IMG/VR virus record: IMGVR_UViG_3300009164_000056
Span: 25,571-89,570 of that record
Direction: 5' to 3' (one strand)
From: a virus
DNA: 64,000 nt
Shown piece after piece: positions 59,446 to 60,435 of the stretch (positions are counted from its first letter, which is position 1; the number at the start of each line of letters is the position of its first letter). The notes under the pieces are model-generated. The model was not told the DNA's origin and searched no databases. It worked only from the letters and a program-made list of their open reading frames with translations. The position numbers were made by a program, and so were the translations under genes.

Positions 59446-60435
59446 ATGACAACGTTAAAATCATATGCTCTTTTTGACAATTCAGGTCTAATTGTACCTG
59501 GAAGCTTAGTTGTACAAAAAATTAAGCCTTCAAATAAAAACTTTAAAGAAGTTACTGCTATAGAATATTATAATAAAACCACACCGGCTTATTCTAATAT
59601 TGTAACAGCTGCTTATCCAAGTGCTATATTAGCTAATACATTTAGTGTAAAATTAGAAAACTTTCTTTTAACTAAAGGTGTTAAAGCTAATAAAACTGTT
59701 TTAAACTATACTGCGTGTTCAGATGATGTTAATGCACCTGAGTTTGCTAACATAGTAAATATAGGACAATCACCGGCAAGTTTAAATGAGTTTCTTGGAC
59801 CTTTTATGGGTGGTGGTTTAGCTGGTTATCCACATACAGGAGCATTAGGATTACAAGCTTGGCAAAGTCATGCTACAACAGATACACCAATTGATGGTCC
59901 ATTATTATTAATGAATATGCCACACATTGGTATTACTCAACAATCTGATCTTGTTGCTAGCAATAATAACGTAGGTAGAATGTTAAGAAAAGGAAAAAGT
60001 TCTGCTTCAGCTGATAATACATGTGGTGCTGTTGTTACAGCTGCACAATGGGTAATGGCTAATACTGCATCTGGTTCTGCTCCAGTTAGAGGAGCGGGTG
60101 TATTTGCTAATAATGACCAATATTTCACTCTTGCTACAATTCTTTATACTGATAGAGTAACTTTATGTTCAGCTCCTTATAACTTTGTTTTAGATTCTAC
60201 TAAATACAGTGCCGGTGTTAAACTAGCTACAGAGTATATTAGAGCAAAAAGCTTTACTGATTTAAAAAATACTTTAATTCCTGTTTTATCAGGACAAAAA
60301 AGTTTATATTTCTTAACCGGTACATTTGTTAATGTTGATGATGGCTATTCAGCATTCATTGATTTTAATGAATTATGGTTATGGGATTCAGGATCTTGGA
60401 CAGATCTTACAACAGCATTTAAACTAACCTTATAA
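59446..60435 (+). CDS. LCIB/LCIC-family beta-carbonic anhydrase-like protein with extra N-terminal module
   Basis: CSDD (C91, D93), GPFMGGGLAGYPHTGxxGxxAWxSH, PHIGI (H160), GRMLRKG and TCGA (C193) match the order and spacing of LCIB-family motifs. Confidence 0.82.
   Translation: MTTLKSYALFDNSGLIVPGSLVVQKIKPSNKNFKEVTAIEYYNKTTPAYSNIVTAAYPSAILANTFSVKLENFLLTKGVKANKTVLNYTACSDDVNAPEFANIVNIGQSPASLNEFLGPFMGGGLAGYPHTGALGLQAWQSHATTDTPIDGPLLLMNMPHIGITQQSDLVASNNNVGRMLRKGKSSASADNTCGAVVTAAQWVMANTASGSAPVRGAGVFANNDQYFTLATILYTDRVTLCSAPYNFVLDSTKYSAGVKLATEYIRAKSFTDLKNTLIPVLSGQKSLYFLTGTFVNVDDGYSAFIDFNELWLWDSGSWTDLTTAFKLTL

Follow-up and report, generated by a model that had tools for sequence, protein, structure and literature searches.

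The DNA considered here is a window of 64,000 nucleotides, the final 64 kb of the 89,570-bp virus record IMGVR_UViG_3300009164_000056 (record positions 25,571 to 89,570; G+C 31.7%). Towards the end of this window, within a run of genes that share one orientation, an open reading frame (ORF) of 329 amino acids (59446..60435, + strand) encodes an LCIB-type beta-carbonic anhydrase that is preceded by a short N-terminal module and a linker (Table 1). Our analysis showed that this module is a separate, conserved, N-terminal unit that is reused on many unrelated cargo domains, that it is exchanged for other N-termini, and that the LCIB gene is found in late structural gene runs. From this architecture and from gene position we infer that the module tags the enzyme to the virion for external display, a reading to which we assign a rough probability of 0.45.

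Pfam assigned residues 63-211 of the protein to PF18599 (LCIB_C_CA) with 65.1 bits (cut-off 25; E 7.5e-18), in a match that spans profile positions 4-130 of 223 and so covers the first half only, and sequence matches in the PDB to 6kfs (1.6e-7) and PtLCIB4 begin at query residue 53. An AF2 model built from 60 homologues (mean pLDDT 84.9, pTM 0.80) aligned with PtLCIB4 (5b5y_B) at Z 26.0 and a root-mean-square deviation of 2.1 A over 232 residues, pairing model residues 47-326 with chain residues 2-264. The same model matched 6kfs at Z 25.9 and Chlamydomonas LCIB (CrLCIB, 5k5w_B) at Z 20.1, while ordinary beta-carbonic anhydrases reached a Z of about 11. The phage enzyme therefore has the fold of the LCIB/LCIC family (PF18599; PtLCIB4 5b5y, CrLCIB 5k5w, 6kfs; Z 20-26 over about 212-238 aligned residues) and keeps its Cys-His-Cys positions, but unlike the solved members, to which it is 18-22% identical, it is encoded by a phage and carries a 46-residue N-terminal extension. 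C91, H160 and C193, which we take to be the zinc ligands, line up with the Cys, His and Cys of 6kfs and PtLCIB4 and are invariant in alignments of 20 and of 60 sequences. Because these candidate ligands are invariant, catalysis appears to be under selection; as judged from the aligned residues the active site is intact, and catalysis is predicted. According to a review, diatom LCIB members are active and Chlamydomonas LCIB is without measured in vitro activity (PMC9614477).

Since the structural match begins at residue 46-47, residues 1-46 are extra to the solved LCIB fold, and they lay outside all structural alignments to LCIB proteins. An initial annotation, made from the sequence without database searches, had described a segment that precedes the enzyme domain and is not part of the LCIB motifs. 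That description is borne out by the alignment to PtLCIB4 and by the absence of residues 1-46 from the solved LCIB domains; the peptide it quoted corresponds to residues 1-36 and the span it gave, 59446-59570, to residues 1-41. The AF2 model places strands at residues 5-10, 22-24 and 33-36, with pLDDT of 78, 86 and 88 in blocks of 10 residues, and its pLDDT falls below 50 at residues 39-42, ahead of the first helix of the enzyme. A distinct beta unit of three strands is thus predicted for residues 5-36, with a linker of low confidence behind it. The segment had also been said not to be a signal peptide, and we agree: no n/h/c region was apparent by eye, a dedicated predictor not having been run, and residues 5-36 are predicted as beta strands, not helix.

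The segment is no product of chance. A hidden Markov model (HMM) trained on the window protein and 96 homologous N-termini scored the window ORF at E 2.5e-21 (70.8 bits), and over the whole 89.6-kb genome it found no second module, the next best match having an E of 0.034. The copy in the window is a divergent variant, with K31 and F33 in place of the family residues G31 and W33. With residues 1-45 as the query, no PHROG family reached E<=1, Pfam had only a chance-level match (PF21268, E 0.15, 12.8 bits; cut-off 27) and the ESM Atlas had no usable one; longer fusion partners of the window's own variant of this region were not returned.

Across the family, the module follows the pattern L-[KR]-A-[FYW]-[VAI]-x-[YF]...G-x-[IV]-[VI]-P-G-S-L...P-x-x-G-x-W-x-E-[VI]. 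A profile of 42 positions, made from 14 diverse module sequences and searched against 1.84 billion cluster representatives, retrieved 896 clusters with E<=1e-3, 185 of them with E<=1e-10, and just one of the best 150 matches was an LCIB protein. The architecture counts given here refer to the best 149 non-LCIB matches of the 896. In all 149 the module was N-terminal, its first copy beginning at residue 1-10 in 146 of them, and it was present as two tandem copies in 93 proteins, as three in 1 and as a single copy in 55. In LCIB proteins, which form dimers, two single modules would likewise come to lie together. These proteins range from 49 to 876 amino acids in length, and in 59 of them a run of at least eight Thr, Ser or Pro residues stands behind the module. 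A Pfam domain at E<=1e-4 was found in 28 proteins and in none of the other 121; the partners were Fib_succ_major (10), DUF285 (6), BspA-type LRR_5 (5), Laminin_G_3 (4) and Lcl_C (2), with PKD, Ig, PQQ_2 and DUF3439 once each, and none of the 149 had a Pfam match over the module itself. The initial annotation had likened the segment to a small module found alone or fused to varied domains, and these results give that fusion pattern a firm basis. The partner domains are binding domains of extracellular proteins and, because they come without a signal peptide as judged by eye, the obvious exit from the cell for the proteins that carry them would be on the particle.

Over 341 module instances the consensus kept an aromatic residue at position 7 in 97%, V/I17 in 96%, G19 in 91%, P28 in 86%, G31 in 91%, W33 in 90% and V/I36 in 93%, and S20, L21 and E35 were also among the best-kept residues. 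Many copies are rich in Lys and Arg. A Cys-Cys pair, which could serve as a disulfide, in metal binding or otherwise, closes the module in 95 of the best 149 matches, and the copy in the window is without it. In BFVD, one protein of 142 amino acids from an uncultured virus aligned with 41% identity in 49 columns, a match that is probably to the module, and two module proteins compared with GenBank phages by tblastn gave no match.

A word-indexed search for homologues of the whole protein returned 374 proteins at E<=1e-3. The 120 that were listed all carry PF18599 and are all unnamed or 'hypothetical', often on contigs of 100-127 kb. At least 97 of these 120 have the module, which in 96 stands as far from the CSDD motif as expected and in one (P0053) behind a 20-residue leader; a longer alternative N-terminus was found in 17, four are truncated ORFs, and two (P0092, P0095) begin just ahead of the enzyme domain. 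When 185,579 prokaryote species were scanned with a sequence pattern, one genome per species, a single relative came up, on a 1,571-bp contig of a metagenome-assembled genome. The LCIB-type enzyme had no match in GenBank phages, and Foldseek found no LCIB-like viral protein in BFVD, where the best match was a Pandoravirus carbonic anhydrase (E 4e-3, TM 0.32). A search of literature full text for LCIB combined with terms for phages, viruses or metagenomes gave no relevant report, and the phage-specific LCIB clade and its tag both appear to be undescribed.

An LCIB relative is encoded in 71 viral-contig loci (here numbered with the prefix L), with the module in 67 and alternative N-termini in 4. 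All 51 distinct complete LCIB ORFs in these loci carry an N-terminal extension, which is the module in 47 (45 by a motif rule, and L032 and L060 by HMM score) and an alternative in 4. Module-led genes also stand beside the enzyme gene itself: 21 of the 71 loci have, no more than a few kb from LCIB, a total of 28 other ORFs that begin with the module. One of these joins two tandem modules to Fib_succ_major and another joins the module to BspA-type LRR_5 (Table 1), and the further C-termini include poly-Thr tracts with small unassigned domains behind them, and a protein of 627 amino acids that is likewise without assignment. The number of module genes is one to three in each of five genomes that are complete or nearly so.

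Thirty of the 71 loci belong to the structural lineage of the window phage, with large terminase (TerL), portal and major capsid protein (MCP) 52-79% identical (MCP 67-79%), and all 30 have LCIB within the head operon, on the strand of the head genes. Twenty-eight of them place it 3' of a gene for about 338 amino acids (p353) that comes after the MCP gene, and in 22 of these 28 the next gene encodes a conserved 235-residue 'virion structural protein' (p235; PHROG), the locus ending first in the other 6; in the remaining two of the 30, LCIB is just 3' of the 235-residue gene. In the window phage the p353 and 235-residue genes adjoin, 13 bp apart, and the LCIB gene is elsewhere. Other lineages, with MCPs only about 25% identical, have their module genes in a variable island beside lysis genes. 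Other N-terminal motifs, of at least three families and likewise joined to variable C-termini, occur in this island too. One family carries Fib_succ_major, another is found on ORFs that match PHROG virion-structural and tail-spike families, and another is common to the LCIB sister subfamily with alternative N-termini and a repeat-rich ORF of 778 amino acids (Table 1); these families may be a set of alternative address tags. Such islands were seen in L020, L005, L003, L076, L077, L080, L053, L040 and L075.

Two kinds of neighbour recur beside the module genes of these relatives. In the second phage lineage an ORF of about 338 amino acids that matches phrog_4417 (function not assigned, no Pfam match) is always immediately 5' of module-bearing genes, with homologues of the L020 copy in L005, L003, L076, L077 and L080, and a role as partner or modifying enzyme is conceivable for its product. 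Directly 3' of LCIB, many loci of both lineages encode a DUF6321 protein (Pfam, 2.3e-19), and in the islands of relatives a gene near LCIB encodes a DUF5872 protein (4.6e-13); positions recorded for these and for the small basic ORFs of the islands are in Table 1.

The history of the enzyme was followed in a maximum-likelihood tree of the catalytic domains, in which the 63 complete ORFs of the 71 loci were reduced to 51 distinct sequences plus the window, leaving out 8 partial ORFs and 12 duplicates. The tree splits with 100/100 support into one clade that holds all 18 head-operon entries and a second that holds 27 entries from outside the head operon together with the window, which is nested in a 100/100 clade of 20 entries, none of them from a head operon. 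Since the head genes of the window phage and its LCIB domain belong to different lineages, the LCIB gene must have moved between phage lineages. The four entries whose N-termini are alternative ones group together at 100/100 within the first clade. They stand next to two module-bearing entries at a support of 92/73, which is not strong, and replacement of the tag in this subclade is the simplest reading. These alternative N-termini are shared, in the 4 loci, with adjacent small ORFs and with a repeat-rich ORF of 778 amino acids, and they match no Pfam or PHROG family. Its repeats lead us to read the 778-residue ORF as possibly fibre-like; it matches only a PHROG without assigned function and has no significant similarity to the fibre-like ORFs of the window.

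Module and enzyme do not appear to have diverged together. Compared with the nearest other clade, the window protein is 75-84% identical in the enzyme domain and just 44-53% in the module, whereas compared with the distant head-operon clade the enzyme is 45-48% identical and the module up to 47-50%, so that on these alignments the two identities are decoupled. The window module has L9 and F33 in common with modules of the head lineage (L026, L028) and F10 with the other clade. These residues are suggestive of a module adapted to its particle, in one natural case. The far greater divergence of the module than of the enzyme, together with the loss of G31 and W33, could also be expected of a functionless leader, a decaying remnant that was carried along when the gene moved between lineages. 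We consider this very improbable: the variant is 79-94% identical in P0002 and P0006, whose enzyme domain is 86% identical, its three strands are still predicted with block pLDDT of 78-88, and the HMM recognises it at 70.8 bits.

We return to the module as a docking tag. The first ~36-40 residues would be an autonomous small beta module that serves as a common N-terminal address tag, binds a component of the virion and attaches the fused cargo to the phage particle, most likely on its outside. The LCIB-type enzyme would then travel with the virion rather than act only as a cytoplasmic metabolic gene and, as a matter of speculation, it could speed CO2/bicarbonate interconversion, shift the pH at the host surface, or act just after ejection. 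Gene positions, exchangeable N-termini and flexible linkers all fit a docking tag. The initial annotation had arrived at the same kind of tag, and the cargo, the head-operon position, the exchange of tags and the context in the window are in keeping with it, although its choice of the capsid rather than the tail as the docking site did not gain from our results. The broader claim, that abundant uncultured aquatic phages hang interchangeable cargo, for the most part lectin-like, LRR and Ig-type binders, on their particles through a tag of ~40 residues and that hundreds of phages thereby carry the first virion-borne carbonic anhydrase, is put forward as somewhat more doubtful than not.

A head-operon position would also be expected if the module loaded the enzyme into the lumen of the capsid or tail, to be ejected with the DNA and to act at the start of infection. 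The Lys/Arg-rich character of many module copies and the neighbouring genes for small basic, DUF6321 and DUF5872 proteins would suit such packaging, as would the giant virion proteins of 2033, 4516 and 1925 amino acids and the 'internal virion protein' PHROG match near them, giant virion proteins being usual in podophages whose proteins are ejected. Display at the surface nevertheless agrees better with cargo of lectin-like, LRR and Ig type that is held by poly-Thr tethers, and we favour external display over packaging for ejection, which we regard as improbable.

Another explanation is that the enzyme is a cytoplasmic auxiliary metabolic enzyme and that the module serves oligomerisation, regulation or the binding of a host or phage factor. 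It could supply bicarbonate for the carboxylations of nucleotide and lipid synthesis or, if the host were a cyanobacterium, dissipate the inorganic-carbon pool of the cell; the closest isolate by MCP is a cyanophage, though at 28.5% identity. The ribonucleotide reductase genes of this phage, the invariant candidate zinc ligands and the two homologues, P0092 and P0095, that appear to begin after the module are consistent with this role. What it leaves unexplained is why the same tag stands on lectin-like, LRR, PKD and Ig domains with poly-Thr linkers, why an N-terminal extension is present on 51 of 51 distinct complete LCIB ORFs, and why the gene is so frequently in the head operon, and we keep it as a serious rival, less likely than display and likelier than packaging. 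Viral carbonic anhydrases are usually read as auxiliary genes, and a 2026 preprint treats alpha, beta and gamma enzymes on viral contigs, not LCIB, in this way (bioRxiv 10.64898/2026.01.21.700432). Those described there resemble the present protein as CO2/bicarbonate enzymes with conserved active-site residues and differ from it in belonging to the alpha, beta and gamma classes and in being without the tag.

Several observations weigh against external display on the virion. No GenBank phage has the enzyme or the module, hence there is no applicable virion proteome, and the module matches no Pfam or PHROG family, those of known anchor domains included. The tag occurs in lineages whose MCPs are about 25% identical, and a specific docking site would have to persist across that distance. 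In the window copy, the only module of its genome, G31K and W33F replace the two most conserved late residues. The p353 protein has no recognisable decoration or fibre fold and gave no lead to a docking partner, and the DUF6321, DUF5872 and small basic neighbours are unlike displayed proteins and may mean that the module proteins share some other fate. Identity between the LCIB module and that of its neighbour is 73-89% in L023, L024 and L040 and 30-58% in the other 18 of 21 loci; with such mixed identities, co-adaptation of modules within a genome was not used as support. Genes with metabolic roles also occur inserted in structural operons, and for that reason the position of the gene is not proof.

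The closest parallels to the tag as we read it are the N-terminal anchor domains of the tailspikes, tail fibres and capsid decoration proteins of phages, such as the head-binding domain of the P22 tailspike and the capsid-binding domain of T5 pb10, a comparison of layout. They are alike in having a conserved N-terminal unit with exchangeable C-terminal domains, in the presence of several such genes per genome, and in variable islands by structural or lysis genes. The module differs in being smaller (~36-40 amino acids), often tandem and without a match to these sequence families, in that its attachment is putative, and in that its cargo here is a metabolic-type enzyme and not a receptor-binding protein or depolymerase. 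If the docking reading is correct, the tag would define a large family so far without annotation (896 clusters at 50% identity), it would mark particle-borne proteins of uncultured aquatic phages, and it would offer a simple sequence rule for spotting displayed cargo. A carbonic anhydrase carried as a structural passenger would be a new viral route to inorganic-carbon chemistry, and the tag could serve as a display handle in phage engineering. Even if the enzyme is cytoplasmic, both the phage LCIB clade (374 proteins at E<=1e-3) and the tag would appear to be new to description.

Table 1. Positions of the LCIB-type carbonic anhydrase, its neighbours and related features. Positions are those of the window unless a locus or the genome is named.
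Feature	Position	Strand	Basis or remark
N-terminal module, residues 1-36	59446..59553	+	HMM, predicted strands, consensus, profile search
Linker from module to enzyme, residues 37-46	59554..59583	+	Low pLDDT; LCIB match begins at 46-47
LCIB-type beta-carbonic anhydrase domain, residues 47-329 and stop codon	59584..60435	+	Pfam, structure match
Candidate zinc ligand C91	59716-59718	+	
Candidate zinc ligand H160	59923-59925	+	
Candidate zinc ligand C193	60022-60024	+	
'Tail protein' gene, 114 amino acids, head of the co-oriented run	55896..56240	+	phrog_16194, 9.5e-10
Fibre-like ORF, ~1000 amino acids, next large ORF 5' of LCIB	56195..59233	+	ORF list; TTG start uncertain
Lys/Gly-rich ORF, 58 amino acids, between fibre gene and LCIB	59250..59426	+	ORF list
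Lipoprotein-like ORF, 217 amino acids, directly 3' of LCIB	60449..61102	+	Hydrophobic leader, then Cys
Terminator-like hairpin that closes the gene run	61185..61220	+	15-bp stem and T run
Giant ORF, 2033 amino acids	13848-19949		Structural region
Giant ORF, 4516 amino acids	29692-43242		Structural region; zero PHROG matches
Giant ORF, 1925 amino acids	43249-49026		Structural region; contains exonuclease-like stretch
p353, gene for ~338 amino acids after MCP	genome 19790-20842 (L073:2785-3843)		Outside the window
Two tandem modules with Fib_succ_major	L024:11002-12042		6e-36
Module with BspA-type LRR_5	L040:6873-8072		5.7e-26
Other N-terminal motif family with Fib_succ_major	L005:4848-5966		
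Other N-terminal motif family on ORF with virion-structural and tail-spike matches	L053:2335-3711		PHROG
ORF of ~338 amino acids 5' of module genes	L020:5781-6791		phrog_4417
Repeat-rich ORF, 778 amino acids	L048:8917-11244		
Listed with small basic, DUF6321 and DUF5872 ORFs	L003:10981-11253; L041:9644-9976		

The gene run that holds LCIB in the window begins with the 'tail protein' gene and is closed by the sole strong terminator-like hairpin; from the fibre gene to LCIB the sequence has no such site. The fibre-like ORF has a weak YadA_head repeat match (0.015) and no match in PHROG. On a lake RNA-library contig of 7.5 kb, from a relative ~92-95% identical, the 'tail protein', LCIB and the lipoprotein are retained along with the N-terminal part of the fibre, and 970 other letters take the place of 2021 bases in the C-terminal part of the fibre (window 57280-59302), which points to a fibre tip that can be swapped as a module. 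The 58-residue ORF has a homologue in the syntenic locus L001, and similar small basic ORFs fill the islands of relatives. The lipoprotein-like product has no Pfam or PHROG family; homologues 47-90% identical adjoin or lie near LCIB in 4 of the 71 loci (L001, L035, L042, L056), which come from both head lineages, and LCIB and the lipoprotein may be functionally paired.

The p353 family is large, with 3520 unnamed proteins at E<=1e-5, many of them from Tara Oceans and lake records, and top matches 77-94% identical to the protein of this genome, whose listed TTG start is probably ~15 codons too early. Residues 284-353 of its AF2 model (pLDDT 82.9, pTM 0.49) match the RecA C-terminal domain (Z 9.5, 63 aligned), and for the remainder of the protein there was no match. 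Foldseek with this model found nothing in the PDB at E<=1e-3, and sequence searches of the PDB with p353, p235 and MCP gave no match.

Genes for the large terminase, portal and MCP are recognised in the virus record by PHROG matches, and it also encodes tail-fibre-like proteins, the three giant ORFs and a ribonucleotide reductase. ORFs near the giant ones match PHROG 'virion structural protein' and 'internal virion protein', and the window holds no tRNA genes. By MCP, the nearest isolate is the cyanophage Leptolyngbya phage Lbo-JY46, followed by Cellulophaga phages and a crAss-like phage. Shine-Dalgarno-like motifs were found upstream of just 1 of 44 genes, a weak hint that may suit a Bacteroidota host, as the initial annotation had proposed, and other hosts as well, so that the proposal is compatible with this scarcity and not singled out by it. 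RNA-library contigs cover the LCIB region, and such libraries can contain DNA, so transcription cannot be read from them. Runs from marine and estuary samples that held small shares of the window were set aside as having no bearing on habitat. The window DNA is present in freshwater metagenomes, namely a run that is its probable source and one further run with 0.89 of the sampled words.

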